From the NCBI GenBank assembly GCA_976551045.1, contig CDPCPM010000037.1, forward strand, positions 6,696,001 through 6,760,000: 64,000 nucleotides of DNA, given 5' to 3'. This document shows, piece by piece, positions 10,922 to 63,760 of the stretch. The position numbers were made by a program, and so were the translations under genes. The notes under the pieces were generated by a model. The model did no database searches, had not been told where the DNA came from, and saw only the letters and a list, made by a program, of their open reading frames with translations. This DNA is from Glaucostegus cemiculus (lineage: Eukaryota). How positions within the stretch are numbered: the stretch's first letter is position 1; each line of letters starts with the position of its first letter.

Positions 10922-11730
10922 ATGAACACCAGAGCTAAAAGTGCAGCTGAAAGCAAGAGGAATGAAGACACTCATCTTACTGTGGAAGCTAGTTCTGAAC
11001 TCCTGGATAATAAACTTGATCAGAAATTTTCCACTTTGGAAATGCAGTTAAAGGAGATTGAAGACAGACTAACAACATTTAAACAGGAAAACATTAAACA
11101 ACAGCAATTAATTGCTGAACTGGATGAAGCAGGCAAAGAGGGAGATCGTAGACTGAGTTTACTGGAAAATGATTTAACTGAGACCACCAAATACTGGAAC
11201 AGCAAAGACAGAAGATTATTGATTTAGAAAGCCACAGTCGGAGGAACAATTTGAGGATTATTGGCCTTCGCAAAGATGCTGAAACTGGTAATCCTATTGA
11301 ATTATTTTCCAAACTTCTGATGGATGTGTTTGGCTCTGAAGTTTTCTCTGTATGTCCCATACTTGATCGTGCTCACCGAACATTAAGACCAAAATGCCTG
11401 GCAGAGCAAAAACCACGGCCAGTAATATTGAGATTTCACTATGTGAGTATGAAAGAGCATTTGATTCAAATCGCTCATCATCAAGGAATGATCCAATATA
11501 AAGATTGGAAGTTTCGTCTGGTTGAAGATTACAGCCCAGAAATTATGAAAGAGAGATTGTGTTATAAATTGATTATGTCGTGACTTTATCAAGGGAAGTA
11601 TCAACCTGCATTGCTTTTCCCAGCATGCTGGAGGATGGTACTCCCTGACAAATCACACAAATGGTTTAATTTCGTGAATGAAGCTGAGGAATTTCTCAAA
11701 GATTAACTTTTGATTTCAGATGGTTCATAA
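10922..11730 (+). pseudogene. L1 ORF1p (coiled coil plus RRM/CTD, Transposase_22-like), disrupted
   Basis: Coiled-coil heptads, then DLESHSRRNNLRIIGL, LDRAHR, PRPVILRF, EDYSPE; frameshift near 11200 and internal stop at 11581. Confidence 0.88.
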
Positions 11731-12413
11731 ATGTGCTATTCTTTGATATTTATACCTATTTGGTCTACAAGGTAATAATTAACTTACAGATTTGAACGTT
11801 TTAAGTCTGGAGATCTTTTTTTGTCCTTTGTTAACACTTTTGTGTTTGGTTCTGGAACATGGATACTTATCACGTTTCTATTTTACAATTCTTTTTACCC
11901 TTATATTATTCTATTTTATTATTTTAATGGTTTATTTTTGTAATAATTAAGAATCTGACTGGGTGACTGATTGCCTTTTTTCTTTTGAAATAATAGTAAG
12001 ATTGCATTTTTTAAATGTCGACTGTCAGTATTTTTCACTGTGTAGAATTCTCTCAGCAAACCCGTTTATAATTTCGAAATGCTGTTTGGGTACTTGTATC
12101 TTCATGTTTTGATTACCGGTGGTGTTTTGCACTCCTTTTAACTTGGAGATCTGCCACCAAAAGAGGTGGGGTTAAGAGATTTAGTGAGCAGCATTCTGGC
12201 TGTCTATTGGCCAGTTTTAGGGCTTTTGTGGCTGGGGGGTGGGGCTGTTTTTAGTTTAGTTTTTTTCTTCTTCTGGACTGATTTAAAACTACAAATATGC
12301 CTGAATTGTTCTCTTATCCGGCTCTTCTTTGAACTCTTTTTCCTCTTCCTATTAATAAGTCTCCTGTGCAGTAAGGTTAACCCTTTACATACCATATGTT
12401 TTAGTCTATTAAA

Positions 12414-15400
12414 ATGGATAATATGATTAATTTTGTATACGAATGGTTTAAATAATCCAATTAAGCAGAAGAAGATCTTTAAAGTTTTTCTTAGACTGAA
12501 CGCTCAGATTATTTTTGCTCAGGAGACTCATATTAGGAGAGAGGATAATCAATGCTTCCTTAGATCTTGGCGGGGGTCAACAGTTTCATTCTAATTTACA
12601 AGCAAAGATGAAAGGAGTCTCTATTTTTATAGACTCCTTGATTTCATTTGTTCATCATGACACAATCTCAGACCCGAATGGTAGATTTTTATTAATTATT
12701 GGCTTACTTCACAAGAAAGAAGTTGTTATGGTTAATGTTTCTGCACCTAATGTTGATCATCCCGAGCTCTTTAAACATTTATTTGCATACTTTCTGAATT
12801 TAAACGTATGTACGTTGATTATGGGTAGAGATTTCAACCCTTCACTGGATAGATCTGTGTCAAGTCAAGTACTTTCAAACCAATCCACTGTCTTTATTAA
12901 TTCCTTTTTTAGTTGGTTCCAGAATTTTCGAAGCGTACAGATTTCTACACCATTATAATAAAGAGTTTTCATTCTTTTTTTCATGTCTATCACAACTACT
13001 CTAGAATTGATTACTTCTTTATTGATTCTCGATTAGCTGCACTTGCTATTGATTGTAAGTACGATGCAATGGCCATTTCTGATCACGCACCATTGAAACT
13101 ATCAACCAAATTAGTGGACATACCCTCTGGTGTCAGACAATGGCGATTCAATTCTTCTTTACTTCAGGATTTAGACTTTGTTCATTTTATTAAAGAACAA
13201 TTTTCCTTTTTCTTCTCAATTAATTCAATGGAAGAAATTTCCAGTAGGATATTATGGGATGCCTTTAAAGCTTATATCTGTGGTCAAATTATTTCATACT
13301 CTGCTGGATTGAAAAAATGAACTAATAATGAATTACGCAAACTGGTTGATAAGGTTAAGGAAATTGATAAAAAATACTCTGATGTTCCTAATTTGGAGCT
13401 TTATAAAAAGAGAATTGAACTTCAATTGCAACACAGTTTATTATTAACATCTCCAATTGAAAATCAACTACTCAAAACTAGGAGTCAGTTTTATATACAT
13501 GGTGATAAATCTAGTAAATTATTGGCCAACCAACTGAAAGTTGCTTTGACTAAACATCAGATTATTAAAGTTCATAAACGAGATGATCAAATTAATAAAT
13601 CTTTTCAAGAATTTTATACTTCTTTATATCAATCAGAATTTCCTGAGGATTCTACATCAATGCATAAATTTTTAATGAATTTGATTTCAAAATTACCACT
13701 AATGAACATTTAATATTAGATGCACCCATTTCGGAGGAAGAAATAAAGAAAGCAATTTCTTCAATGAATTCTTGTAAAACATCTGGTCTTGATGGGTATA
13801 CAGTTGAATTTTTTAAAATCCTTTTCTGATCTTCTCTCTCCCTGGTTAGGTAAAATTTTTAAAGGTGCCCTATCAGCAGGTAAATTACCACAATCCTTTT
13901 ATGAAGCAACTATCTCTTTAATTCTTAAAAAGGGTAAAGATCCTACTGAATGTGCATCTTGTAGATCTACCTCTTTATTGAATGTGGACTCCAATTTTCT
14001 TTTCCAAAATATTGACTTCTAGTTTAGAAAAGGTACTTCCACAAAATAATTCTGATGACCAGACAGGATTTATTAAAAATCACTATTTGCATTTTAATGT
14101 CAGGAGGCTAATGAATATTGTATATACCCCTTCATCTACAATTCCAGAATGTGTTATCTTGCTAGATGTTGAGAAGGCTTTTGATAGTGTTGAATAGGAA
14201 TATTTACTTAACACACTTGAGAAATTTAATTTTAGCCCAAATTTTATATCAGCGATTAAATTGATATACCATACACCTTTGGCTTCAATACTTACTAATA
14301 ATCAGAGATTGCCCTTTTTCATGCTTTTTTGAGGCACTAGACAGGGCTGCCCTTTAAGTCCTTTAATTATTTGATATTGCTTTGGAACCCTGGGCAATTG
14401 CCTTTCAGGACTCTTCTATCATATTTGGTATCACTGGTGGAAAGGGGACCTATAAGATATCACTATATGTAGATGACCTGTTACTTTATATCTCTAACCC
14501 TGAGAAATCCGTCCCTGCAGCATTATCACTGCTTGCTCAGTTTAGTGTTTTCTGTGGTTATAGATTAAATCTTAATACGAGTGACCTTTTTTCATTAAAT
14601 ATGCAAGTCCCAATTTATAGACAATTACCATTTAGATTGGTGACTGATTATTTTACTTATTTGGGTGTTAAAATTACCAAGAAGCACATGGACTTATTCA
14701 AAGTTAACTTTTTACCCTTAATCAATCATGTTAAACAATTGTTTACTAAATGGTCCCCATTGTCTCTATCATTGATTGGTCAAATTAATGCGGTTAAGAT
14801 TAATATTTTACCAAAGTTTTTGTATTTATTTCAGGTGGTTCCAACCTTCAACTCAAAATCCTTTCTCAATACTGTTATTTTATAAAATTCTTTCACATAT
14901 ATAGCAGAATAAAAACCCAAGCTTAAGTAAAAAATATTTACAAAAATTAAAATGGGATTATCAAATTAAAAGTATGGCTTTGCCTAACTTTAGATTTTAC
15001 TACTGGGCAATTAATATTAGATATTTAATTTTTTGGACACAAGATTTAGATGAAATTCAATGTCCCCAAATCTTGAGTCTGTGCAAGGGTTTTCATTAGC
15101 TTCTATTTTAACAGCCTCACTCCCTTTTGCACTTACTAAATTGAGTAAACAAATGATTAACCCAATAACTAAACATACAATACGAATATGGTTTCAATTT
15201 CATTAATTTTTTGGATTGCATAAATTCATTTTATCAAGTCCTATCCAATCCCATTTTTTCAACCATCCAGAATTGATTTAGCTTTTTCTTTATGGAAAAT
15301 GAAGAGAATAACATGCTTTCATGATCTATTCATTGATAATTGTCTCTTGTCTTTTGAACAGTTGTCTAATAAACACAATTTGCCTAGATCACATTTTTTT

Positions 15401-16149
15401 AGCTATTTACAGATCAGAAATTTTTTAAATGTTATTTTATTTGCTTTTCCGATACCACATAAAATTGAAATTACAGAAAAATAATAGGTTTTAATCCTTA
15501 TCAGAAGGGCTTGATAGCAATAATTTATGATCTGATTATGAAAATACATTTAGAGACACTTGATAAAATTAAGAATGAATGGGAAAGAGAACTCCAGATA
15601 CTTTTACCTATAGAGATATGGAAGAAAATTTTCAAATTAGTTAATACATCTTCAATGTGTGCTGGACACTCTTTGATGCAGTTTAAGGTGGTTCACCAGA
15701 CCCATATGTCTAAGGATAAGTTAGCCCATTTTTATCATCATACAAATCCTGTATGTGACAGATGTAATTTGGGGGTGGCTTCCCTGACACATATGTTTTG
15801 GTCCTGCCCTCTTTTGGAAAAATATGGGGAAGACATTTTTAATATTATTTCAATTGTATTGAATATTGATTCACAACCTCATCCTATTACTGCAGTTTTT
15901 GGTTTCCCAATAATGGATTCTGACCATTTATCCATTTCAGCTTGTCGTATGATTGCATTTGTTACATAAATGACCCAGAGATCCATACTATTTAAATGGA
16001 AGGATCCAATACCTCCTACTACATTTCAACAGTTTTCTCAAACTATAACATGTTTAAACTTAGAAAAAATTAGGAGAGGTACTGTTGATCCTTCACTTAA
16101 ATTTGAGGATGTTTGGAGTCCATTTATTCAGTATTTCTATATGATATAA
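12414..16149 (+). pseudogene. L1 ORF2p (APE endonuclease plus reverse transcriptase), multiply disrupted
   Basis: NGLNNPIK, QETH, DPNGRF, SRIDYFF, ISDHAP, DQTGFIK, LDVEKAFDSVE, RQGCPLSP, ISLYVDDLLLY, YLGV, CDRC...HMFWSCP spread over track ORFs 12515-15969. Confidence 0.92.
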
Positions 16150-24018: not shown

Positions 24019-25775
24019 GGCCTGAATTTTAACAACAGTGCTGAAGTAGCACGTTTCACTGTGTGCTACTTGCCACAGGAGACCAGCAATTTTTGCGGCA
24101 TTGACTTTCCCTTTTTTGACATTGGTTGATTCCTTGCGTTATTCCTGCTATCCAGGAATAGTGATATCTTCAAACAGACTAACCAGCCAGTCAAGTTAAA
24201 GAAGTCTCTCAACCAGCATCCTAGGTAAAAAAAAATGGTTTTAAGTGTGTTCCAGGCATAAAATTAGGCCTGGAACACACTTAATTCAGAAGTATCATAA
24301 TACATATTTTTTTAATATGTATTCTTTAAAAATCCATATTCTTTAAAAATCCGTATTTTGAAATAATTGAAGGATTGACTTAATACATAAAATTAAATTC
24401 TTAGTGCTAGAGACATTACTTAGCAGTATCTAGCCATAATTTGATCTCAAGTTTAGCGATCTACTAAACAGCTTCAGGTGAATCAGTGTGAATAGTTGTG
24501 AATCACCAGAAATGGATCTCTGTGAGCTAGAGTTGAGTCTGGACAATGATCTGACTTGTGTGCCCACTGTCACACTCTTGAACATTCTTCATGTTTTTGT
24601 TGTGGAGCAGGTGTCCACATTCCTCTTTCCTGTACTCCATCCAGCAGTGAGTGTTGTCCTGGTGTTCCTTGGATTCATCGCTTGGTCCACATTATGCAAT
24701 ACAGATGGTGATGTTTGCAGGCAGACACAAGGTGCACCATTGGGAAGTGAGACCGTTGGGGTTGTAGGGTTCCGGGATTTCAGAACTTTAGTCAGGCAGT
24801 TTTTTTTAAAGTCCTTTGTCAATAAGAGTGTTTTGATGGCTGTTGGCCCATATTGTTCATTAAAAAGGATGTTTACCTCTGCAGATATCAGAAGGTTCAT
24901 TGTGACCTAACACAGGAGGTGACTACAGGTTTACTGGAACCTGTGCTCCAGAAGTGATCATAGTGGTTTCCTGGAGATCAACTGGATAGTAGATCCTGAG
25001 CCAAATTGTACAGCAGACCACACAAGTGAGGAAACGTTTAGTGTTTTAGCTCCGCTACCCCAGTTTCTATATGAGGTTTAACCATGTCCTCTGACGTTCT
25101 GAAGATGATCACTTTTTTTTGGATCTAGCGTAAAATGAAGGTTTTCCCTCAAGCTCCAGAATAAGTATTAGTTTGAAAAATCAGATGCAACTTTCTGAAA
25201 GGGTATGGGTCCAATGACTGAATTGCACAGTTACCCTTCCACTGATTCCAGCAAGGTTTTGTCTTTGAATTCATGAATGGTAGGTCAGGACTAATGTGAC
25301 TGAGATTCAGGCGATGTTGGAAATGGGAAAAATGGGCAGCATTTGTCAAGAGCACATCAGTGATTGGCCTTGCTGGCATGAAGCAAAGATTAGGTGCCCA
25401 GTCCTTCTCCACCTGGCACGATGGAAGGTACCTGTGTGCTTTGCATCCTGCATGAGGTTCAGATCTTGCTTTTACTAAAGGTGATTATGGTTAATGAGCA
25501 GTTAAATATATACTTAGATCTCAAAGCATGATATTTTCAGGGGCATTAGGATAGATCCTACATTTGTGAAGTTTTCAACAAACAAACATTGCTGTACATG
25601 TGGTGTTTGCTTACTTGCTGATTACTGGAGGTTACATAGAACATGCATTACTTGGATAAGCAGGAAATCACTGTTTAGGATTTCCAGATAACTGCCTTTA
25701 TCTATACACACATCTGTACTCCAGAAGTTAGAACCACAATATAAAAATGAAAGTGATTGTTGCAAAATCTGGCCC
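24019..25775 (-). mobile_element. Fossil PIF/Harbinger DNA transposon with imperfect TIRs and transposase remnant
   Basis: Ends GGCCTGAATTTTAACAACA (24019) and TGTTGCAAAATCTGGCCC (25775); ordered minus-strand motifs TGTFHRA, ITDVLLTNAAHF, LAGISG.RV, SDHLQ, FNE, CL, GTLQPQR, VLHN between about 25440 and 24690. Confidence 0.6.
24241..24284. repeat. 44-bp near-perfect palindrome (17-bp perfect arms)
   Basis: TTAAGTGTGTTCCAGGC-ATAAAATTAG-GCCTGGAACACACTTAA. Confidence 0.95.
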
Positions 25776-26966: not shown

Positions 26967-27248
26967 AAGATAAGATAACTTTTTAGTCACATGTGCATCA
27001 AAACAGTGAAATGCATCTTTTGCGTAGAGTGTTCTGGAGGCAGCCCACAAGTGTCGCCATGTTTCCAGCACCAACATAGCATGCCCACAACTTCCTAATC
27101 TGTACGACTTTGGAATGTGGGAGGAAACCAGGGCACTCAAGAAACCCACACAGACACAGGAAGAATGTACAAACTCCTCACAGACAGCAGCTGGAATTGA
27201 ACCTGGGTCACTGGCGCTGATGCTAACCACTACACTGTCATGCCTGCC
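26967..27248 (-). mobile_element. V-SINE with Rex1/Babar-like tail
   Basis: AAGATAAGATA tail, TAGTCACATGT...CAGTGAAATGC, reverse V-domain and tRNA head; same subfamily as 7550-7834. Confidence 0.9.
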
Positions 27249-27309
27249 TAATTTGGAAATACACAAATTACCTTTTCTGCTTTCATAGTTCTACTATCCA
27301 AATGAATGG

Positions 27310-27523
27310 AGGCAGATGTTGGAATCTGGAGAAGCAAACAATCTGCTGGAGGAACTCAACTGGTCAAGCAGCATCTGTGGGGGAAAGGAACTGTCAATGT
27401 TTCGGGCATAAACCCTGCTTCAGGACATTGGGACTTCATACAGGTTCTCAACCCAAATCATGGACAATTTGTTTCCCCCTACAGATGCTACTCTATCTGC
27501 TGAGTTCCTCCAACAGATTGTTT
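27310..27523. mobile_element. Short fold-back element made of two inverted Penelope-like termini with hammerhead motifs
   Basis: Arms AAACAATCTGCTGGAGGAACTCA...GCAGCATCTGTGGGGGA and TCCCCCTACAGATGCT...TGAGTTCCTCCAACAGATTGTTT; arms match the end of the Penelope fragment at 51490-51550. Confidence 0.75.
27392..27427 (-). ncRNA. Hammerhead-ribozyme-like motif (variant core)
   Basis: Minus strand reads TGTC-CTGAAGC-AGGGTTTATGCCC-GAAAC-ATT-GACA: stem I and stem II pair; C at core position 9. Confidence 0.55.
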
Positions 27524-27934
27524 AAATGAGTTGCGATCCCCACATCAGGTTGAACCTAAAATGACCAGGTTTCCAAATGTTCACATGGGAATCCCAAGTT
27601 ACCTGACATGAAGCAAAATGCCAGTAAATTGATTGAATTTTATTGATTTCTTGGAGACTGTTGGAAATTTGTAATATGGAGTTGTGCGCAGGAGCCATTG
27701 TGCTTCAGTGAAATGCTGTCTGAACCTAACAAGGATGAGGTCAGGAAATTTCCAGCACTGGCAGATACTAGTAGAATCACTTATTGAATTTACTGCACTG
27801 ACTGCCTCCTCCCATTGCTGCTTCTTCTCTTGCCTGGATGGCAAGTTGAAACCCTATGTTCTCTGGAACACCTTTTCTAATATTTTCCTCTTCTAGTTGG
27901 ATTTCAAGACCCACTTTTTGAAACAAGGGCACAG

Positions 27935-30749: not shown

Positions 30750-33700
30750 TACAGGAGTTTGCAATCAGTACAGGCCCTTCAGCCCACAATGTTGCACCAA
30801 ACTATATAAACCTTATCCCCATTCAATCTATCCTCCTCTCTATTTCACCTCCCATAACCCTCTAGCTTTTGTCCATGTGCCCATATAATAGTCTCTGAAA
30901 TGACCCTATCATATCAGCCCTTACCACCACCCCTAGCAGTGCATTCCAGGCACCCACCTCTGACATTCCCCTGAACCTTCCTCCACACACCTTAAACAGG
31001 TGACCTCTATTATTGGCCATTACCACCCTGGGGAAACATTTCTGGCTGCCACTGTCTATGACTCAATTTTATATACCTCTAGGAAGTCTTCTCCCATCTC
31101 CATCATTCCAAAAGAGAAAAGCCCCACTTGCTCAACCTCTTCTCATAAGAGATGCTCTCCAACTGAGGTAGCATCTTGGTAAATCTCCTCTGCACCCTCT
31201 CCAAAGTTTCCACATCCTTCCTATAATGTGGTGACCAGAACTGAACACAATATTCCAAGTGTGGTCTAAGTCTTATAGAGCTGCAAAATTACTCTTATAG
31301 AGCTGCAAAGTCTTGAACTCAATCCCCCAGTTAATGAAGGGCAGCACACCATATGCCTTCTTAACCACCACATCCACTTGTGCAGCAACTTTGAGGGGTC
31401 TATGTACTTGGATCCAAAGGTCTTTGTTCCTCCACACTGCTAAGAATCCTGCCATTAACCATGTACTCTGCCTTCAAGTTAGTTCTTCCAAAGTGTATCA
31501 ATTCACTTCCCCAGATTCATCTGCCACTTCTCTTCCAAGCTCTGCATCATCTAAATCCCATTGCAACCTATGACAACCTTCTTCACTGTCTACTACACCG
31601 ACCTTTGGGTCATCTGAAAATTTACCAACCTGTTCTTCCACTTACTCATCCGTATCATTTATAAATTGCAAAGAGCAGGGGTCCCAGAACAGTTCCCTGT
31701 GGAACACCACTAATCACTGAACTCCAGGTTGAATACTCCCCTCTGCAACCACCCTCCACCTTCTATGCACAAGCCAATTTCAAATACACAGAGTCAATTT
31801 TTCATGGATCCCATACCTCATGTTTTTTTGAATGAGCCTACTATGGGGAATCTGGTTAAACACCCTGCTAAAATCCATGTACACCACATCCACCACACTA
31901 CCTGCATCAATTTGCCTTGTCATTTCCTCAAAAAAAACTATTAAGCTCATGAGGCATGATCTGCCCTTCACAAAGCCATGTTGACCAGCCCTAATAAGAC
32001 AGTACTTCTCCAAATACTCATAAATCCAGTCCCCAAGAATCTTCTCCAGTATTTTGCCCACCACTGATGCAAAATTCACTGGTCTATAGTTCAAGATTAT
32101 CCCTTTTACCTTTCTTGAAAGAATGGAACAACATTTGCCATCCTCCAGTGCCACTCCTATGGCCAGGGAGTATTCAAAGATCATTGTTAATGCTCTAGCA
32201 GTCTCTTCCCTCACTTCCCATAGTAACCTAGGGTGTATCCTGTCCAACCCCAGGGATTTATCTATCTTAATGCTTTATAGTAGCTTCAACGCTGCTTCTT
32301 TCTTAACCTTGACATGCTCCAACACATTTGCCTGTTCCACACTAACCTCATTTGTCTAAGTCCCTCTCCTTGGTGAACACTCAAGCAAAATTCATTTAGG
32401 ATCTCCCCTCCCTCCTTCACCTCCAACCACATTTTCCTCCCTTATCCCTGAGTGGTCCCATCCTCACCTTGGTCATCCTCTTGTTCCTCACGTGTGTAGA
32501 ATGCCTTATGGTTTTTCTTAACCATACTTGCCAAGGTCTTCTCATATCCCTTTCTAGCTCTCTCAAGTCCCTTCCTGGCTATCTTATAACTCTCAAGAGC
32601 CCTATCTGATTTTTGCTTCCTAAACCTTAAATACACTTCCTTCTTCCTCTTGACTAAAGCTTCCACCTCTCTTGTTAACCATGGTTCCTTCACCCCACCA
32701 TCCTTTCCTTGTCTCAGTGGGACAAACCTACCTAGAACCCCTAGTATGTGGCCCCTAAACAACCTCCACATTTCTGTGGTGCGTTTACCACAGAACATCT
32801 GTTCCCAGTTTACTCTCCCAAAGTTAGTGCTTAATACCATTGTAATTTTCCCTCCCCCAATTAAATATTTTCCCGTACTATCTGCTCCTATGTTTGTCCA
32901 TGGCTATGCTAAAGGTCGGGGAATTGTGGTCAATATCCCTGAAATGGTCCCCACGGAGGGGCCTTTCACCTGACCAGGTTCATTGCCTAATATCAGATCC
33001 AGCATGGCCTCTCCTTTAGTTGGCCTGTCTACACAATGTCAGGAATCTTTCCTGTACTCACCTAACAAATTCTGCCCCATCTAAACCTTTTGCACTAAGG
33101 AGGTGCCAATCAATATGAGAGAAGTTGAAGACTCCCATGACTACAACCCTGTTATTTCTGCAGCTTTCCAAATTCTGCCTACTTATCTGCTCCTCAGTGG
33201 CCCTATAGAATACTCCCAGTTCAGTGATCACTCCCTTCTTTCTGACTTCCACCCACATCAACTCAATAGATGATCCTTCCTACAGCTGTGATTATCCTCG
33301 ATTAGCAATTCCAATCCCATCCCTTCTATCCCCCTCCTTATCCCTTTTGAAACATCCAAGCTCCAGAACCTTAGGCAACCATGCCTGTCCTTGTGACAGG
33401 AGAATCTCTGTAATGGCCACAACATTGTAATTCCATGCACTGATCCATGCTCTAAGTTCATCATCCTTATTCTTAACACTCCTCGCATTAAAGTAGACAC
33501 ATTTCAACCCTCCAACTGATTGCATTTATGCCCCATCCCCACCTATCCTTCCTCACCTTCTCCATACACACCACATCGACTTCTACACCAATTGATCCAT
33601 CTTCCAATCTAACATTCTGGTCCCCATCCCCCTGCCAACCTAGTTTAAACACTCCCCAACAGCTCTAGCAAACCTGCCTGCAAGGACATTGGTCCCTCTC

Positions 33701-34900
33701 CAGTTCATGTGTAACTTATCCCTTTTATACAGGTCATACCTACCCCAGGAAAGACTCCAATGATCCACACATCTGAACCCCTGCCCTGACTCTTCAGCCA
33801 CTCATTAGTCTGCCATATCTTCCTATTCATTCCCTCCCTGGTGCATGGCACATGCAGCAATCCAGAGATTGCTGACTTTGAGGTCTTGCTTTTTAGCTTC
33901 CTTCCTAACTCCCAATGCTCGTTCTGCAGGACCTCATCCCTTATCTTGCTCATGTCATTGGTGCCAATGTGCACCATGACTTGTGGCTCCTCCCCCTCAA
34001 ATGCTATACATTCGATCTGAGATATCCCTAACCCTGGCACCTGGGAGGCAACATACCATCCAGGAGTCTCATTCTTATCCACAGAATCTCCTGTCCATCC
34101 CCCACCCAATGAATACCTGATCACCATCACATTTCTCTTACCACCACCCAATTTCCCTTCTGAACCAGACTGTGCTAGAGACACAGCTGATGTGGCTCTA
34201 CCAGTGATTTATTCCCTCACTAAACCCCCCCTTCCCCACCAAAACAAACCATATAGTTGTTGTCCAGGGAAACGGTCACCAGGCTTTGAACGCAATCCCC
34301 CCAGCTAATGAAGGCCAGCACACCATACACCTTCTTAAACACCCTTTCCACATGCAGCAACTTTGAAAGATCCATATATTTGGACCCCAAGATCTGCCTA
34401 TTGTACTGACTGCCTATTCCTTTTCCTTACCCTAATGGTCACCCCACAACCTACGTCCCACATCCTTGATGTAACTGCCTACTGGTAATTCCTATCTATC
34501 ATCTCCAGAGCTTCCCGAATGATCCAGAATTCATTCAGCTGCAGCTCCAGCTTCCTAACATGGTCTGTAAAGTGCTGCAGCTGAACACTTCCTGCAGATG
34601 TAGTCCTCAGGGACACTGGAGATCTCCCCGATTTTCCACAATCTACAGGAGGAGCATACTTCTGCCCTGACTGCCATTCCCACTGGTCTAAAAAAGAAAA
34701 TTACAAATAATAGGAAGAACCCACCAGAAGCCTCAGCTCACCTACTTCACCTCCTCATCCTGAAGCCTCTTTAGCCAAAGCCTCAGCTCCCCACTCCAAC
34801 ACTGCCCACTCACAATAGCTGCTCCACTTGACCCCAAATTCTTTTATTTGGCAGCTGCTGCCTAATTATCCAATTTGCTAATCAACAGGCCTATCAACTC
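30750..34900 (-). mobile_element. Near full-length decayed CR1 LINE
   Basis: 5' UTR, ORF1 (CxxC...CRKC zinc finger near 34680-34570, esterase VHIGTND), ORF2 EN (YFNARS, AITE, GVFN) and RT (QHGFVKGRSCL, VDVVYMDF), 3' tail CAGGCCCTTCAGCCCAC. Confidence 0.92.
33620..34677 (-). pseudogene. CR1 ORF1p remnant (zinc finger plus SGNH esterase)
   Basis: MAVRAEVCSSC...PEDYICRKC; EGEEPQVMVHIGTNDM...ELGRKLKSKTSKSAISGLL. Confidence 0.8.
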
Positions 34901-35872: not shown

Positions 35873-38271
35873 TTTTCTTTCAGCTACTTGACTACTCACT
35901 GATTCCCCAGCCAGAAGAAGTTGGCCTCGAGATTGATCGTGTCCAAAGCAAGTAAAACTAATGGAAGAAAATGTGAAAATAGGTAAGACTTGTACAAAAA
36001 GGTAAAAAGTAATTGAAGAACAGGAAATATGATAATATTATTTAATTTTAGCATGGATAAATATTTAATGGAAGCCTGAACTCTGTCGTAAATATGTAAA
36101 TTCTAATTATCCAGTTTCCATTTCCAGCAGTAGCAATGAAATGTGAACAACTGAACATTTTTATTCAGATTTCAGGTCACTGTATCCTGCAATATATTCT
36201 GAAATAAGATAAAACAAAACCAAGCAGAAGTTCAGAGCAATTCTTTCTAATGACTTCACATGAAGCAGAAAAAAACTCAAACATCTAACAGAACATGTAT
36301 ATGGAATCAGAGCACTACAGCACAGAAAGAGGCCCTGCAGCCCATCTCATCCATGCCAGCCTGCTTTTCTGCCTAGTCCCATCTACCTGCACCCAGACCA
36401 TAGCCCTCCATACCTCATTTATGCACCAATCCAAATTTCACTTAAATGTTACAACTGAACCCGCATCCACCGCTTCTGCTGGCAGCTCGTTCCACACTTG
36501 CACCACCCTGAGTGAAGTAGTTCCCCCCCCCCCCGAGATTCCCCTTACATATATCAGCTTTCACCCTAAACCTATGACCTCTAGTTCTAGTCTCACCCAG
36601 CCCAAGGGGAAAGCCTGCATGCATTCACCCTATCAACATGTCTCAGTTTTGTATACTTCAAGATCTCCCCTCATTCTCCTGTACTCCAGATAATAAAGTC
36701 CTGACCTATTCAACCTATCCCTGGAACTCAGGTCCTCAAGTCCTGAAAACATCCATGTAAATTTTCTTTGCACTCTTTCAAGCTTATTGATAGCTTTCCT
36801 GTAGGTGGGTGACCAGAACTGCACGCAATACTCTAAATTTGGCCTCTCCAATGTCTTATACAACCTTAACATAACATCCTAACTCTTGTACTCAATGCCC
36901 TGATTTATGAAGGCTAATGTGCCAAAAAGCTCTCTTTATCACCCTATCTACCGGCAATGACACTTAAGGCATTCTCCCAGCTCCCTTTGTTCTACTGCAC
37001 ACTCCTACCATTCACTGTGTAAGTCTTACCCCAGTATGTCCTCCCAAGGTGCAACACCTCACGTCTGCATTAAATTCCATCTGCCATTTTTCAGCCCATT
37101 TTCTCCGCTGGTCAGATCACACTGCAAGCTTTGATAGCCTTCCTCACTCTCCACTATGCCCCCAATCTTGATGTCATCTGCAAATTTGCTGATCCAGTTT
37201 ACCACATCTTCTAAATCATTGTTGTTTATCATCCACATTAATGGGCCCAGCACCAATCCCTGTGGCACACCACTAGTCACAGGCCTCCAGAGAGACATCC
37301 ATCTACCACTCCTCTCTGGCTTCTCCTGCTAAGCCAATGTTGAATCCAATTGACTACTTCATCCTGAATGCCAAGTGGCTTAACCTTCTGGACCAGCCTC
37401 CCATTTGACTTTGTCAAAGGCCTTGCTAAAGTCCATGTAGACAACATCCACCACCTTCCCTTCATTAACCTTCCTGGTAACCTCAATCTATTAGATTGGT
37501 TAGACATAACCTACCACACACAAAGCCATGTTGACTATCCCTAATCAGGCACTGTCTATTCAAATAGATAGATGTCCTGTCCCTCAGAATACCTTCCAAT
37601 AATTTACCGATAACTGATGTTGGGCTCACCAGCCTACAATTTCCTCATCTTGGTATTAGAGCCTTTCTTAAACAACAGAACATTAGCTATCCTCCAGCCC
37701 TCTGGAACCTCACCCATGGCCAAGGATGTTATAATACCTCTGCCAGGGCCCCTGCAATTTCTGCACTAGCCTCCCACAAGGTCCAAGGGAACACCTCATC
37801 AGACCCTGGGGATTTATCCACCCTAATTTGCATCAAGACAGCAAGTACCTCCTTTTCTGTAATCCAGATACAGTCCATGATCTCACTATTCTTTTTTCCT
37901 CAGTTATAGAATCTATGTCTGTCTCCTGAGTAAACACAGATGCAAAAAAAAAAAAATCATTTAAAAATCTGCCTCATTTCTTTTGGCTCCATGCATAGAT
38001 GACCACTGTGATCTTCAAGAGGAAGAATTTTATCCCTTGCTATCCATTTGCTCTTAATATAGCTATAGAAGCCCTTTGGATTCTCTTTCACCTCATCTGC
38101 CAGAGCAACCTCATGCCCTCTTTTAGCCCTCCTGATTTCTCTCTTCAGTGTTCTCTTGCACTTCTTATACTCCACAAGTGTCTCATTTATCCGAATGGCC
38201 TATCCTTTCTCTTTACCAGGGCCTCAATAACCAAGGTTCCCTAGACCTATTAGCCTTGCCTTTTATCCTTT

Positions 38272-38368
38272 TTAGGAAGGGGTTAGATGGACTTGGGTAT
38301 GGTTGAAAGGTCAGTACAACATAGTAGGCTGAAGGGCCTGTGTTGTGCTGTATTGTTCCATGATTCTA
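38272..38368 (+). mobile_element. Short CR1 3' tail nested in antisense within the second CR1
   Basis: TAGGCTGAAGGGCCTGTGTTGTGCTGTATTGTTCCATGATTCTA interrupts the minus-strand ORF2. Confidence 0.75.
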
Positions 38369-39259
38369 ACAGGAACATACAGATTCTGTCCTCTTAATAT
38401 TTAACTTCTGAAGGCCTCCCACTCACCAAGCATCTCTTTGCCAAAAACAAACTATCCCAATCCATGCCTGCCAGATCCCTTCTGAAGCCATCAAATTTGG
38501 CCTTCCTCCAGTTTAGAATCTTAACCCGAGGACTCGTCTTATCCTTTTCCATAATTATCTTGAAACTAATGGAATTATGGTCACTAGATCCAAAGTGTTC
38601 CCCTACACTCACTTCTGTCACCTGCCCTGTCTCATTCCCCAAGAGGAGATACAGTATCACATTCTCTCACATTGATTAAGGAAACTTCCCTGAACACATT
38701 TGACAAACTCGATCCCATCCAGTTCTTTTACAATATGGAAGTCTCAGTCAATATATGGAAAGTTAAAATCACTTACTATCTCAACTTCATATTTCCTGCA
38801 ACTGTCTAAAAATTTGCTCCTTTAAATCATGCTGACTATTGGGAGGTCTATAATACAGTCCTATTAACATGGTCATCTTTTTTTATTCCTTAGTTCCACC
38901 CAAATTGCTTCGGTAGTCAAACCCTGCAGTATGTCCTCGCTGCACACTGCTGTGACATTTTCCCTGATGAGTAATGCCACCCCTCTCCCTTTAATACCTC
39001 CCCCTCTATCATGTCTAAAACATCAGAACCCCAGAACATTGAGCTGCCAGTCCCACCCCTCCTGCAACCAAGTCTCACTAATGGCTACAACATCATAATT
39101 CCACATACAGATCTAAGTTCATCTGCCTTACCTACAATACTCCTTGCATTGAAATAGACAACTCAGAACGTTAGTCCCACCATGCTCAACCTTTCAGTTT
39201 CCATCATTGCTTGTAGTCTTGACATCTACTTTCCCCACAGCTATTCCACTTGCTATCCT

Positions 39260-40188
39260 GCCACTCTAGTTCCCACCCCCCACAGCCCTAGATTAAACCA
39301 CCCCCTCCCCCAAGCAGAACTAGCAAATCTTCCCACAAGGATATCCATCCCCTTCCAGTTCAGGTCCAAACCATCCTGTTTGTACAAATGGCCTGGAAGA
39401 GAGCCCAATGATCCAAAAATCTGAAGCTCTCCCTTCTGTACCATCTCCTTAGCCACATGTTCAACTGCACTATCTTCCTATTTCTTACCTCACTAGCATA
39501 TGACACTGGTAGCAATCCTGAGATCACCACCATGGAGGTCCTGTCTTTTAACTTAGCACCTAACTCCCTGAAGTCACTTTGCAGGACCTCAGTTATCTTG
39601 CCTATCTCATTGGCACCAATATGTACCACAACCTCTGGCTGCTCACATAAGAAAGCTATGGACTCAATCCAAGACATCACCAACTCTGACACCTTGGATG
39701 CAACATACAGTCAGAGTCTTGTTCTCAGCCACAGAACCTCCTGTCTGCTTCCCCAACTAATGGATCCCCTATCACTACCACATACCTCTTCTCCCCCTTC
39801 CCCTCTAAAGGGAAAGAGCCAGATTCAGTCCCCAAGACCAGACCACTGTGGCTTTCCCCTGGTAGGTCATCTCCCCCAAAAGTATCTAAAACAATATACT
39901 AGTAAGAGGTGAACAGCCACAGGAGTACTTTGTACTGACTGCCTATTCCCTTTGTCTCTCCTGACAGTCACCCAGCTACCTGCCTCCTTCAAATTAGGTA
40001 TGACTGTCCCCCATAACTACTCTGCCACACAAATGATCCAAAGATCATCCAGCTCCAGTTCCTTGGCACAGTCTGTAAGGAACTGTAGACTGATTAACTT
40101 CTCACAGATGTAGTCATCAGGGACACTGGAGGTCTCCTCGACTTCCCACATCATGCAAGAGGAGCACACCACTGCACTGGGTGTCATG
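39260..40188 (-). pseudogene. CR1 ORF1p remnant (zinc finger plus SGNH esterase)
   Basis: EQPEVVVHIGANEIG...VVISGLLPV...LNMWLRRW...FRFLDHW; LYKQDGLDLN (cf. DGLHLN). Confidence 0.85.
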
Positions 40189-40889: not shown

Positions 40890-41130
40890 ATCTATCAACC
40901 AAATGCCTTCATCAGCAACTTGTCACCATGGCAACCCCATCTCAGCCTTCAGACATATTCACTTTGTCCTTTTCATGCCTCCCTCACTTCTGGATCTTAA
41001 GACAAACTTAACTTCTGTCTTTCCCAATTCTAAGGAAGGACCTATGACCTAAAACATTAACTCTGTTTCTCTTTGCACAGATGCTGCCTGACCTGCTGAG
41101 AGTTTCCAGCATTTTGTGTTTTTGTCTGAG
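40890..41130 (+). mobile_element. Old Penelope-like 3' terminus with decayed hammerhead relic
   Basis: TTCTAAGGAAGGACCTATGACCTAAAACATTAACT followed by CAGATGCTGCCTGACCTGCTGAG...CCAGCATTTTGTG. Confidence 0.65.
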
Positions 41131-41159
41131 GTTCTTTTCCCTTACTTGGTGTTCAAAGA

Positions 41160-43879: not shown

Positions 43880-44700
43880 TCTGTGTTTACTCCATTAAAG
43901 CATTCCATGATTTTAAAGTATTCTTATGTTTAATCCTTGGCCTTTTCAAGAGAAAAAAGGCCTACACATCCTTTCCTTTGTAGATCTTCAGAAACATTTC
44001 ATGTACACTATCAGTGCCTTTAATTCCTCTTAACAGTAACCCTCCAGGAAATAGGCAGTGTCTGCTTTTCAGTTCTTGTAGTTTTGACCTGCATTATTGC
44101 TTTATCTCTTTTGTGTGGTGTGAGACTACTTTGATGCTCCATCCTGTTCAATTTTTTAATTCTCAAGCAGTGTGAACTTCTTATATTTCTTCTCAGATGT
44201 CATGTTTCATGCTTTGCTGCATTTGAAGTTCATTTGCCAAATATATATCCATTCTTCAAATTTATTTTTGTCCTCCTGCAATTTATTGCAGCCAATTTGT
44301 TGTCATCTAGACTTTTGGAAATCATGATTCCAAACTCTAATCATTATTACAAGTTCTGAATAATGGTCACATTAGTGATTCTTGTTATTTTTGAGAATGT
44401 TAATTCCCATCCTTTCAACCCTGAATTTTGTATTTATTTTTGTATTTGTTGCTCCAGATTCCACCCTCTGAAGTTTCTGGTGTCTCTCACTTTTATTCCC
44501 CCTTCTACTTTCAATGTGGACACCAGTAAGCTATCTTTCTTCTCACTTCCTGACCCCACATTCTCTTGCTTAATTCATTCATCTATTATGTGGTCCTATA
44601 CTGAAGGCCTTTTTTAAACAGAAGTCTACATTAATCATAAATACTGTATACCCCAGATCTTCAAAGAATTCAGTGTTATTGATGAAGTACTATTTCTGGC
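43880..44700 (-). mobile_element. Ancient CR1 RT fragment
   Basis: Decayed reverse motifs equivalent to WQMNFN, FADDT (TTGTCATCT) and DFKKAFDKVPH (ATGTGGTCC...GAAGGCCTT...AAGTCTA). Confidence 0.5.
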
Positions 44701-48260: not shown

Positions 48261-49379
48261 GAATGTAATAGAGTATATGATGATTGTGACCTACGTGGAC
48301 AGGAAGAGTTCATGCCAACAGTAGTTTACAACAGAAACTCTTTTTACTCAGATACTTAAAAGCTCCAAACTATGGGCTTTACCAGGTCAGTGTGAAGTGC
48401 ACAAACACACATTAGAATATAAATAAAACGTTGCTAAACACATGAACAAGTCAAGACTAATTCATTTTTAATTTCCTTCAATTTAGCAGGCACAATCCAA
48501 GTTAAGAAGATGCTTGCATTTGAAGCATCAATTGTTCTGAGCATAGATTGCATGTTTTATCTTTGTCAGATTGTGTCCATTTAGCACGGAAGGACACGCA
48601 GCATAAAAACAATTATTTTCTACTTAATATTATGCTTCTGTTTTATTCACATTATTTGCTAAAGGGTAATTGCTTCCTTTTCTCTTTAGGGGCTAAAGGT
48701 GGAGCCATGTATCACTTCAGATCAAAACATATCTCCCTCAATGCACATTGACCTTTCACAGCTCAGACAGCACACACATTCTTTTTATTACCCTCAAGGA
48801 TACTATCTTTCTAATGTATAGCAGAGAGATTCTCAGGAAAATTACTTTCAAGTGGAATTTCAATTTCTGAACTCACTTTTTGAAGCTTTAAGAATGAAGA
48901 TTGTATTCAATATTATTTAAAGGACACATGCATAACATTCATCCTCCATCAATAACGCTACACATACTATAGATTAGCCTCAGAAAGTTGTACTCAATCC
49001 CTAAAATTTATTCCATTAACCTCATTGTAAAGTATACTAAATTACTTGAACAATACAGAATGCCATTCTTGTTCATCATGAAACTTATCTCAGATGACAA
49101 ATGGTCATTTATTATCAAAGCGGAGATAAATTTAAATTGAGTGAATAATCAGAGGGGGTAACCGCTTCTTCCAGCATTTTTATAAGTCAGAGCACTAATG
49201 TGAAGCAACATTCTGTATATCAGTCGGAACATACCATTTAGAAGACCATGTAAGAGCCAGTCCCCATGATGGCAGAAGTTATTTCTTACAGGGAGAAAAA
49301 ATTCCATTTATATGTTATTCAGGAAATGACATAGAATAAATCGTTAATCACACTAACATATTCATGAATAAAGAGAGAT

Positions 49380-49580
49380 ACAAGAGACTGCAAAAGCTGG
49401 AATCTGGAGCAACAAACAAATCATTGGAGGAATTCAGTGGGTTGATCAGCATTTGTTGGGGGAAAGGGATTGTCGATGTTTCAGGTCCTGATACAGGGTT
49501 TTGACTTGAAGTGTCAACAATTCCTTATCTCCCATAGATGCTGCTTAACCTACTGAGTTCCTCCAGTAGATTGTTTGTTA
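49380..49580. mobile_element. Fold-back element of inverted Penelope-like termini (same family as 27310-27523)
   Basis: AACAAACAAATCATTGGAGGAATTCAG... versus ...CTGAGTTCCTCCAGTAGATTGTTTGTT; central hammerhead relic GTCCTGATACAGGGTTTTGACTTGAAGTGTC. Confidence 0.72.
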
Positions 49581-50059: not shown

Positions 50060-50346
50060 TATTTATTTATTAGTCACATGTACAGTACATCGAAACACAC
50101 ACTGAAATGTATCTTTTTTTGCTTTACTGAGAATATGTTGGGGGCAGCCCACAAGTGTCTCCTCTCTTCCAGTGCCAACATATCATGCCCATAGCTCCTA
50201 ACTTGTACGCCTTTGGAACGTGGGAGGAAACCAGAGCACCCAGAGGAAACCCATGCAGACATGAGGAGAACATACCAGCTCCTTACAGACATTAGCAGAA
50301 TTGAACCCGGGTTGCTGGCACTGTAATAGCATTACGCGAACTGCTA
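50060..50346 (-). mobile_element. V-SINE with Rex1/Babar-like tail
   Basis: TTTATTAGTCACATGTAC...ATCGAAACACAC..TGAAATG tail, reverse V-domain, GAATTGAACCCGGG. Confidence 0.9.
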
Positions 50347-51032: not shown

Positions 51033-51556
51033 GAGCACCTTTGTTCCATCAGCCGCAACAGCCAGGACTTCCTGGTGGTCAGCCACTTCAATTCCACTTC
51101 CCAATCCACACTAACAATCCACACTATCCACAGACTCCTCTGCTGCCACTTTGCGGCCAGATACAATTTGGAGGAGCAGCATCTCATATTCCGTCTTGGT
51201 AGTCTCCAACCCGACAGCATCAACATCAATTTCTCTAACTTCTCGTAACCACTCCCCTTCCCCTTTTTTACCTCTCCCTTTGTCTTCCCTCATTCCTGTG
51301 GCCCCCTCACCCCTTCTCTTTCCTCTTGTCTGCCCTCATGACCTGCCCATCACCCACCTACCTTCCTCCTCTCACCTGGACTCACCTGTCACCTGCCAGT
51401 TTGTACTCCTCTCCCGCCCCTTACCTTTTTATTCTGGCTTCTACCATCTACCCTTTCAGTCCTGATGAAGGGTGTCAACTGGAAACGTTGGCTGTTTATT
51501 TCCCTCCATAGATGTTGCCTGACCTATTGTGTTGCTCCAGCATTTTGTGTGTGTTG
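51033..51556 (+). mobile_element. Penelope-like element 3' fragment (GIY-YIG endonuclease C-terminus plus terminal repeat)
   Basis: EHLCSI...VVSHFNS...LEEQHLIFRLGSLQPDSININFSNFS-stop (51248), pyrimidine-rich UTR, then hammerhead motif and ATAGATGTTGCCTGACC...CCAGCATTTTGTG end. Confidence 0.88.
51457..51494 (+). ncRNA. Minimal type I hammerhead ribozyme motif (partly decayed)
   Basis: CAGTC-CTGATGA-AGGGTGTCAACTG-GAAAC-GTT-GGCTG: intact core, stem I CAGTC/GGCTG, palindromic AACGTT at stem III, weakened stem II. Confidence 0.7.
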
Positions 51557-53853: not shown

Positions 53854-54150
53854 TCAGGTGGCTTCTGTCTATACCAGAAGGGAATAATGTATCTGTTGCA
53901 TTTCCAGCTAGCATTGAGGTGTACATCACTTCCACAGCTGACAGAAAGCTTTACTGGCTCTGTGTAAGATTCTGTGAAAGATTGGATTTGGAGTCTTCCT
54001 ATGTTCTTCAACATTTTTTTATATTCTGTCATGCAAGCCAGATAATGCACTGTGAGAAACAAAGGACTGCAGATGCTGGAATTTAGATGAAAAACACAAT
54101 GATGCTGGAGGAACTCAGCAGGCCAGGCAGCATCTGTGGAGAAAAGCAGG

Positions 54151-54188
54151 CGGTCAATGTTTTCGGTCAGGACACTTCTTCAGGACTG
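54151..54188 (-). ncRNA. Hammerhead ribozyme motif (decayed)
   Basis: Minus strand reads CAGTC-CTGAAGA-AGTGTCCTGACC-GAAAAC-ATT-GACCG. Confidence 0.6.
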
Positions 54189-54213
54189 AAGATAGGAAAG
54201 GGGGAAGCCCAAT

Positions 54214-54802
54214 ATTGGTATTGGTATATTATTATCACTTGTACCGAGGTACAGTGAAAAGCTTGTCTTACAAACTAATCATACAGGTCAATTCATTACA
54301 CAGTGCAGTTACATTGAGTTGGTATAAAGTGCATTGATGTGGTACAGGTAAAAACAGTAACGGTAAAGTGTCACAGCTACAGAGAAAGTGCAGTGCAATA
54401 AGGTGCAAGGTCACAACAAGGTAGATTGTGAGGTCATAGTCCATCTCATTGTCCAAGGGAACCGTTCAATAGTCTTATCACAGTGGGGTAGAAGCTGTCC
54501 TTAAGTCTGGTGGTATGTGCCCTCAGGCACCTGTATCTTCTACCCAATGGAAGAGGAGAAAAGAGAGAATGTCCCGGGTGGGTGGGGGTCTTTGATTATG
54601 CTGGCTGCTACTCCAAGACAATGAGAGGTAAAGACAGAGTCCAAGGAAGGGAGGCTGGTGTCCATAATGCGCTGGGCTGTGTCCACAACCCTATGCAGCT
54701 TCTTGCAGTCCTGGGAAGAGCAATTGCCATACCAAGCTGTGATACATCCAGATAAGATGCTTTCTATGATGCATCGGTAAAAGTTGGTGAGAGTCAAAGG
54801 GG
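54214..54802 (-). mobile_element. Rex1/Babar 3' fragment
   Basis: LTNFYRCIIESILSGCITAWYGNCS...KKLHRVV..AQRI...IIKDPHPPG; (TTGGTA)n tail. Confidence 0.92.
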
Positions 54803-55010: not shown

Positions 55011-55875
55011 TAGTTATCTGAGATATTATCCAAATCTTCACAGTTAGCACTTGGTCTGTCACAGCACCCATAAGAAGACAAATAATTCAAGGAAAAAGCT
55101 GGAAATTACAGAAGAGAATAACAAATGAGCTTCATCAGCTGGTACAAGCAACTGCCTAGCAAGCTGTTGGTTTGGTAATATGTGAACATTTATCAGAGGT
55201 TAAGCTGTTATGTATTTGCACCTTGAGACCTAGTGATCTATTGTCTATATAGATAATAACCAATTTCAGACAGGACTGTAGTACAATTATTTCTCATTCC
55301 ATCTTTGACAACTGCTATTTTGTGGTTTTGGTCTTCTAGAAACACCGGACAAATTAATTACATTTCGAAAACAGAATTTGGAGTATGTTTCTGCCTTTTG
55401 ATCTTTTCCCCCAGCTTTCTCTCAAGGGTCACCCTCCACCCAGCAGTTCCCTGGCCAACAGGAAAGCACAATATTATTCCACACCTTCTTTTAGCTGAAG
55501 GAAACTATTTCCACTGCTGTTACACAGGTTAAGTATGTCTGTGTACATGTGGCAAATGCATACATAATTTGTAATCATAATATAGACACATATGATTTTT
55601 ACTCATGCAGTTGGGTGCAAATAAGATATAAAGAGATATTTTACTATTCACTGCTATCTCTTTTTCTCCCATTAAGGTTGTTTGGGGCCTGTCTACTTAA
55701 ATATTCACTGTGTCTTCATGGTCCACATTACTAAAGTCCCTCATCTGCTTTAAGTCTCTATGTATGTTCTCCAATAACTGATGGCATCATGAAATTGTAT
55801 TGCCCAGAATGTTTCATGAAGGCTATCAATGCATTGGAGAAGATACAGAGACTTAAAACAGATGAGGGAATTTAG

Positions 55876-61149: not shown

Positions 61150-61318
61150 AAGTAGATGCTTGAAATCTAAAATAAAAACAAAAACTGCTGAAAATAATCA
61201 GCAGGTCAGGCAAGTGTCTGTGAACAGAGAGATAAGAGTTAATGTTTCAGGCTGAAGACCTTTCGTCAGACCCAGATGCTGCCTGAGCTGCTGAATATTC
61301 CAGCATTTTCTGTTATCA
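61150..61318. mobile_element. Fold-back element of Penelope-like termini with hammerhead core
   Basis: AAAACTGCTGAAAATAATCAGCAGGTCAGGCA versus TGCCTGAGCTGCTGAATATTCCAGCATTTT; minus strand 61236-61272 reads CTGACGA-AAGGTCTTCAGCCT-GAAAC-ATT-AACT. Confidence 0.72.
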
Positions 61319-63679: not shown

Positions 63680-63760
63680 TGAAATAAAAACAGAAAATGC
63701 TGAAAATTTTCAGCACATCAGGTAACTTCTTATAATGTTTCATGTTACTGACATGTCGTT
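63680..63760 (-). mobile_element. Short Penelope-like terminal relic
   Basis: GAAATAAAAACAGAAAATGCTGAAAATTTTCAGCACATCAGG resembles 61170-61210. Confidence 0.5.

Follow-up and report, generated by a model that had tools for sequence, protein, structure and literature searches.

The window analysed here, the whole 64-kb stretch of DNA, contains at 27306-27523 a hairpin-shaped stretch of 218 bases, which raises the question of whether such a structure is a mobile unit in its own right or a scar left by another element. The stretch is formed by two decayed Penelope-like element (PLE) ends arranged head to head, with the parts given below (the left hammerhead was read against the descriptor of PMC4209133 which, like the other papers cited here, is drawn on in partial text).

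27300-27305: candidate target-site duplication, left copy (AAATGA), an exact 6-mer found again at 27524-27529
27306-27335, minus strand: PLE 3' 'tail', which only the left arm has, similar to the tails at 49373-49413, 54054-54092 and 44452-44490
27336-27426, minus strand: left arm, a 5'-truncated end of a PLE pLTR, beginning with hammerhead stem I (nhmmer 94 bits, a partly circular score because the profile was made from arms of the window)
27392-27426, minus strand: decayed minimal type I hammerhead of the left arm, which fails the strict scan
27427-27431: centre junction of 5 nt, bridged by single-copy-depth contigs of organisms B and C
27432-27468, plus strand: dead hammerhead remnant of the right arm, with core positions 3, 5, 8, 12 and 15.1 changed
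27432-27523, plus strand: right arm, a 5'-truncated PLE pLTR end without tail (nhmmer 74 bits, partly circular in the same way)
27524-27529: candidate target-site duplication, right copy, pairing with 27300-27305

The arms at 27336-27426 and 27432-27523 are 74% reverse-complementary, with a p-distance of 0.26 over 91 sites (13 transitions and 11 transversions), and the segment 27336-27523 matches itself in inverted orientation at 72% over 189 columns (blastn self-comparison, E 2e-28), bearing out the original prediction of two arms of about 90 bp that are reverse complements. The self reverse-complement score of the 27-kb element is 111, while 1000 shuffles peak at 42, and this is the third highest score among 1182 sliding windows of the 64 kb; the two that score higher overlap each other and both come from another hairpin at about 55.7 kb. 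This other hairpin, at 55729-55872, is stronger than the 27-kb element (score 131), has chance-level microRNA model matches on both strands, is not matched by the PLE arm profile, and is possibly a MITE-like remnant. There is also a short near-perfect palindrome at 24239-24286 (score 68), with weak mir-3116 matches. The predicted RNA fold of the 27-kb element has an energy of -95.7 kcal/mol on the plus strand (z -8.4) and -111.8 kcal/mol on the minus strand (z -12.2), and 0 of 200 shuffles are equally stable in either case. The element is non-coding, as had been proposed: no open reading frame of at least 120 aa overlaps it, and its single 100-aa stop-to-stop frame has no Pfam match.

The two arms are asymmetric, the left one being longer by about 30 nt because of the tail, which extends to about 27306 with an uncertainty of about 3 nt at its left boundary. 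This tail lacks about 12 nt compared with the family tail as found at 49 kb and in paralogous contigs, and the paralogous contigs run on beyond 27312 with letters that are absent from it; we infer that its shortness reflects an internal deletion. On the right arm, five tail queries gave nothing significant beyond 27523 (p 0.16-0.996), and the best candidate for a decayed tail, 10 of 12 letters at 27534-27545 (p 0.16), was rejected. The depth of paralogues drops to the single-copy level in the bin 27534-27556.

The origin of the arms can be traced through a further PLE copy in the window, which consists of two adjoining parts:

51066-51248, plus strand: C-terminal remnant of a GIY-YIG endonuclease from a PLE, with 37 relatives at E<=1e-3
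51249-51553, plus strand: pLTR of the truncated 51-kb PLE, without tail; its hammerhead core, at 51457-51494, is better kept than any other in the window

Because the solo end at 51459-51551 lies behind this endonuclease remnant, which has 60 residues and sits 210 nt before it, the arms can be recognized as the pLTR 3' ends of an EN+ PLE. For the left arm, the match to the terminus 51459-51551 is 74% over 93 columns (blastn, E 7e-13), and the right arm has a p-distance of 0.37 to it and no blastn match at E<1e-3, so that the proposed match of both arms to the terminus at 51457-51550 is clear for the left arm and weaker, below the blastn threshold, for the right. The broader proposal, that these are Penelope termini with hammerhead remnants placed by Penelope RT/GIY-YIG, is supported by the GIY-YIG C-terminus before the 51-kb solo end.

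The 60-aa remnant itself gave nothing relevant in Pfam and a single match in a word-index protein search. GIY-YIG Pfam matches are present in three of the 18 relatives scanned, although these are weak and below the cut-off (E 0.001-0.008); relative P0024 starts with RT-like motifs when read by eye, and the seven relatives that were traced are gene models of Hypanus, Leucoraja and Rhinoraja, of which many are chimeric predictions; from these matches alone the genome would probably be that of a batoid. In three of four aligned relatives a CX2-5CxxC linker precedes the GIY-YIG domain with an internal CxxC, a region that the 51-kb remnant does not include, and this linker marks Neptune/Nematis (PMC8557442). 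Judged by this linker, the autonomous partner PLE is probably of the Neptune/Nematis type; we note that the 51-kb remnant belongs to a different subfamily from the 27-kb element. In five of the relatives (P0002, P0003, P0035, P0036 and P0037) the PLE GIY-YIG C-terminus is fused to host domains, namely ATP synthase c, a GPCR, LAMP, RecQ5 and DUF4518, and these fused gene models are likely either annotation artefacts or exonised PLE ends.

Two hammerhead-like motifs had been proposed at the centre of the element, and both are found at these positions, 5 nt apart, but neither is intact; a strict scan for CUGANGA...GAAA...UH finds no match in any of the four arms of the 27-kb and 49-kb copies. The core of the left motif reads CUGAAG-C-A with an extra C, stem II has 4 bp, GAAA is intact, and the predicted cut site lies between 27396 and 27395. 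Its helix III palindrome is broken (ACAU), and thus what is needed for dimer folding has been lost; minimal hammerheads have no activity as monomers (PMC4209133). In the window as a whole the strict scan identifies six places, of which 51462, 54183 and 61269 are PLE ends and the other three lie outside these repeats, and an Rfam search of the whole window at E<=5 gave seven weak matches, none of them a hammerhead and none within the 27-kb element. According to the fold model, the hairpin sequesters the motifs: the pair probability of hammerhead stems I and II is 0.0 in the whole element, and 0.01 and 0.17, respectively, in an isolated arm. The expectation that a transcript of either strand would form a long hairpin carrying a ribozyme motif is therefore borne out as to the fold, which is strong on both strands, but the motifs are broken and buried. 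Metazoan PLEs have dual minimal hammerheads on opposite strands about 100-700 bp apart (PMC4209133); the 27-kb element resembles them in having a minimal type I motif in the pLTR, an opposite-strand pair and a link to truncated PLEs, and differs in its spacing of 5 nt, its decayed cores and the C between core positions 8 and 9. This C, located near 27417, 27441 and 49495, is present in each of the three 27/49-kb subfamily arms in which the site is covered and absent from the 51- and 54-kb ends, and it may be either a subfamily-wide variant or an inactivation older than the insertion.

Ten matches to the arm profile are present in the window at E<0.01, and together with a tail-only fragment found by blastn these define eight loci, which are three fold-backs (27, 49 and 61 kb) and five solo ends (41, 44, 51, 54 and 63 kb). 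Those not yet listed are:

41022-41133, plus strand: solo PLE terminus of the subfamily of the 61-kb copy
44415-44490, plus strand: short PLE end fragment, mostly tail
49373-49580: second fold-back, of the subfamily of the 27-kb copy, with the tail on the left arm (about 39 nt) and the left hammerhead cut in stem II
54054-54220, minus strand: solo PLE terminus with hammerhead and tail
61156-61317: third fold-back, of a different subfamily, with tail and hammerhead on the left arm and a right arm of 47 nt
63679-63730, minus strand: short PLE end fragment of the subfamily of the 61-kb copy

All three fold-backs carry the tail on one arm only, and the solo ends at 41 and 54 kb extend only a few tens of bases past the hammerhead start. 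The proposed recurrence of the same architecture at 49380-49580 and 61150-61318 is correct in that both are fold-backs, but back-to-back hammerheads are present in only one of the three, since the left one at 49 kb is cut and the 61-kb right arm has no hammerhead. Evidence for target-site duplications is similarly mixed. The candidate of 6 bp at 27 kb extends to 8 bp with one mismatch, which is equalled by 3-4% of 400 random position pairs, and position 27304 is the same in organisms A and D and altered in B; at 49 kb the candidate has 10 bp with two mismatches (49359 and 49579), equalled by 4% of random pairs (thus p of about 0.04 in each case), and none was found around the 61-kb fold-back; no empty site was seen. 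Elsewhere in the window there is a near-full-length decayed L1/Tx1-like LINE at 11000-16000 on the plus strand, with Pfam matches to an ORF1 RBD-like domain, RT and zf-RVT, and there are CR1-like LINE remnants with RT on the minus strand at 31780-34208 and 37062-39710, with an esterase-like ORF1 domain at 39363-39710. An abundant SINE-like family (26975-27232, 50075-50340 and others) adjoins the 27- and 49-kb fold-backs and forms many inverted pairs in the window. In the 91 frames scanned with Pfam, out of 143 in the window with at least 75 aa, the matches are to retrotransposon domains only.

Comparison of the centres and arms provides the main evidence as to whether the fold-backs form a family. 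The 27-kb centre joins hammerhead start to hammerhead start, the 49-kb centre joins stem II to hammerhead start, and the 61-kb centre joins hammerhead start to a point well beyond the hammerhead start. In a tree of the arms, the four from 27 and 49 kb form one clade without internal resolution (95/95), and the 61-kb arms group with the solo ends at 41 and 63 kb (97/97), so that each fold-back derives from a single subfamily and the form has had two or more origins. We have also aligned contigs of four of 15 sequencing runs at 80% (8,655, 30,361, 21,705 and 16,651 records, nearly all on the arms; run X1, which may come from the source sample, is not counted as independent). Left-arm-to-right-arm joins account for 13 of the 15 joints listed out of 122, with coordinates that are all different and one contig per run, the fill letters being unknown for seven of these 13. 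All 11 of the left-right junctions with known fill differ, with core lengths of 52-147 nt vs 188 at 27 kb, in a joint table that is blind to paralogues in register with the 27-kb centre; several of these junctions contain letters matching neither arm. The random centres and lengths that, according to the original prediction, would indicate independent truncated insertions are thus largely what is found, with three different centres in the window, two subfamilies, and no two known-fill junctions alike. The joints 27381>27335 and 27373>27335 show some paralogues to be short direct tandems restarting at the tail-less end, which is the other known PLE arrangement.

Among the 32 contig pieces listed (with 78,205 others besides) there is no paralogue spanning the 27-kb centre, and no listed piece bridges the right junction of the element; the depth of the centre relative to the arms gives no count of shared centres, as the 27-kb right hammerhead is too diverged at the 80% cut-off. 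However, 11 of the 20 paralogue-type pieces among those listed stop at 27424-27428, which makes the hammerhead start a favoured inner boundary, and a shared-centre class of fold-backs may exist.

We favor the explanation that the 27-kb element is an insertion by-product of a PLE, which we regard as probable, and it is likely the product of a single aborted insertion that has been inert since. Within this explanation two-ended priming has not quite an even chance, and the events could be as follows. An autonomous PLE protein, probably of the Neptune/Nematis type, would make nicks in the two strands of an AT-rich site, about 6 bp from each other, and each free end would prime a cDNA on the PLE RNA, a distal start site giving the arm with the tail and a proximal start site about 39 nt inward giving the tail-less arm. 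Synthesis of both would end after about 90-130 nt, in this case where the structured hammerhead region has its 5' edge, and the two short cDNAs would then be joined, perhaps aided by a short self-complementary stretch at the hammerhead start; the hammerheads would be passengers of an uncleaved template and no working part of the scar. At the hammerhead start of the 51- and 54-kb termini there is a small hairpin with energies of -4.9 and -3.7 kcal/mol as DNA, which could promote stalling or annealing. That the candidate duplication encloses the entire unit speaks for a single event. Both arms start upstream of the predicted cut site, and their template must accordingly have been uncleaved; in the anole system, too, cleavage by the ribozyme can be dispensed with, and reverse transcription proceeds from two internal sites at the limits of the tail (PMC11167929). 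The purified anole Poseidon PLE protein cuts and extends both target strands and prefers AT-rich DNA (PMC11167929), and two-ended priming as suggested here would be an extrapolation from that in vitro system.

Snap-back of one cDNA would be the other route to the same by-product, and we consider it possible but rather doubtful. Self-priming is favoured for PLE inversions in PMC3846280, but of the two arms the one with the tail is internally the shorter at 49 kb and the longer at 61 kb, which in these two cases only is a better fit to independent truncations.

A related process is L1 twin priming, in which two target-strand primers act on the element RNA and an inversion arises within one insertion. 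The 27-kb element could share with it the two target-strand primers and the inversion within one insertion, but in twin priming the second primer is internal and an inversion-deletion results, whereas both 27-kb arms start near the 3' region and the outcome is an inverted duplication. A literature search on twin priming together with Penelope gave nothing on PLE inversions by title or abstract. The closest counterparts are the complex insertions of EN+ PLEs, which have head-to-head inverted pLTRs, only one of which bears a tail (31 bp), as well as duplications of 8-10 bp and junction palindromes (PMC3846280), with tails of 30-40 bp at one end (PMC8557442). The inverted ends, the tail on one arm, the junction palindrome, the heavy 5' truncation and the candidate short duplication around the unit (short and variable duplications being usual there) are all in keeping with these insertions (PMC3846280; PMC8557442), and the architecture of fold-back PLE ends is thus already known. 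The difference is that both copies at 27 kb are cut to about 90 nt, leaving no open reading frame and no direct pLTR, and that such minimal units make up three of the eight loci in the window.

Perfect palindromes can lose their centres after formation. Such later loss would also vary the junctions, and the 49-kb centre could be a deletion of this kind. This bears on a second explanation, in which a non-autonomous palindromic PLE derivative is transcribed and re-inserted whole by PLE RT/EN, its centres being varied by later deletions. The 27- and 49-kb copies are alike in subfamily and polarity and have nearly the same outer ends, many paralogous left-arm pieces end at one inner point, and pLTRs suffice for mobilisation in trans (PMC3846280), all of which such a family would account for. 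A G to A change at core position 8, a site outside the four-arm comparison, is also common to the 27- and 49-kb right arms; within that comparison, which is a weak test, none of the five informative sites groups left with left and right with right, three group by locus and two are crossed, so that no arm-specific lineages are seen. Fold-backs in two subfamilies, 11 differing junctions of 11, and the lack of a centre-spanning paralogue among the pieces listed also argue against re-insertion as a unit, and a hairpin RNA of 90 bp would be a poor template. We therefore regard this explanation as unlikely, while retaining some weight for it because of the in-register blindness of the joint table, the unknown fills, the common inner boundary and the possibility of later centre loss. 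An amplifying retrozyme- or MITE-like family, as originally predicted, is not supported, given the variable centres and lengths, the two subfamilies, the absence of arm-specific sites, the asymmetric ends and the broken ribozymes.

Copying back by the PLE RT of a self-cleaved small (circular) RNA, as in a retrozyme, is highly improbable for the 27-kb element. Retrozymes are tandem direct repeats with at least two same-sense hammerheads and a circular RNA (PMC7229834; bioRxiv 10.64898/2026.07.22.740005), and derivation of the non-LTR kind from pLTRs has been proposed, with examples found in the sole chondrichthyan sampled (bioRxiv 10.64898/2026.07.22.740005). The 27-kb element is like these in being non-coding, pLTR-derived and dependent on PLE enzymes, with type I hammerhead-derived motifs on both strands; however, it has one motif per strand together with its antisense, in inverted rather than direct arrangement, both cores are broken where those of retrozymes are intact, monomeric minimal hammerheads are inactive (PMC4209133), and the stems have no pairing probability in the hairpin. 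We give as little credence to a DNA-transposon MITE with long terminal inverted repeats. The element is short, non-coding and palindromic, with high-copy arms and a candidate duplication, but its arms correspond to the terminus behind a PLE GIY-YIG remnant, and the only partner-like sequence in the window is this PLE remnant; moreover, the outer ends are unequal and the tail is one-sided, so that the inverted repeats do not reach both ends, length and structure are not uniform across copies, and most copies in the window are solo ends.

The age of the element can be estimated from related organisms. Single-copy-depth contigs bridge the 27-kb centre in organism B with 8/103 differences and in organism C with 6/93, flank divergence is 21/332 in both (centre vs flank, Fisher p 0.65 and 1.0), and because their divergence equals that of the flanks we read these contigs as orthologues. 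The 27-kb centre is therefore fixed at the same locus in two related organisms; the left junction is bridged in organisms B and D. The equal rates suggest no constraint on the centre, in a test of low power. The corrected distance between the arms is 0.32 vs 0.066 for the flanks, and assuming that the arms started out identical, the insertion would be about five times older than the splits of these organisms. In B, C and D alike the contig pieces begin at 27569, which suggests an indel at 27568-27569 in this genome relative to its relatives. Co-option of an old scar by the host as a regulatory hairpin (a small-RNA or editing substrate) is scarcely to be expected, as the strong fold on both strands and the occupancy of the same locus in related organisms are set against a centre that diverges at the flank rate, arms that are 26% apart and the lack of an Rfam match.

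The literature search, which covered papers and not Repbase or Dfam, found none on this batoid family by title or abstract, and the main text of the Squalomix preprint, in the part available, does not mention Penelope; it is quite possible that an entry for the family exists in Repbase or Dfam. Pattern matches in viral sequences (13 loci) and metagenomes (0 and then 19 loci) were set aside as uninformative, as 30 of the 32 extend only a few bases past the pattern. Two metagenome loci, L025:1474-1522 and L029:895-943 (46% GC), match the arm profile over 49 nt with 20 bits.

As an old, neutrally decaying transposon scar, the single locus at 27 kb matters little. However, the origin of PLE inverted ends and tails is described as unresolved in PMC8557442, and the in vitro PLE work, in the text available of PMC11167929, is without inversions; many minimal scars, each of them independent, could separate two-ended priming from snap-back through the end points of their arms. 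Fold-back hairpins of this type also risk being mis-annotated as MITEs, microRNA precursors or ribozymes. It is a speculation, and one that we consider improbable, that the genomes of rays and their relatives contain thousands of minimal fold-back scars recording two-ended priming at the two start sites that delimit the tail, and that a subset with back-to-back hammerheads and a fixed short spacer constitutes a palindromic non-autonomous retroelement that amplifies itself and has no counterpart described so far. Such a shared-centre family, if true, would represent a new architecture of non-autonomous retroelement.
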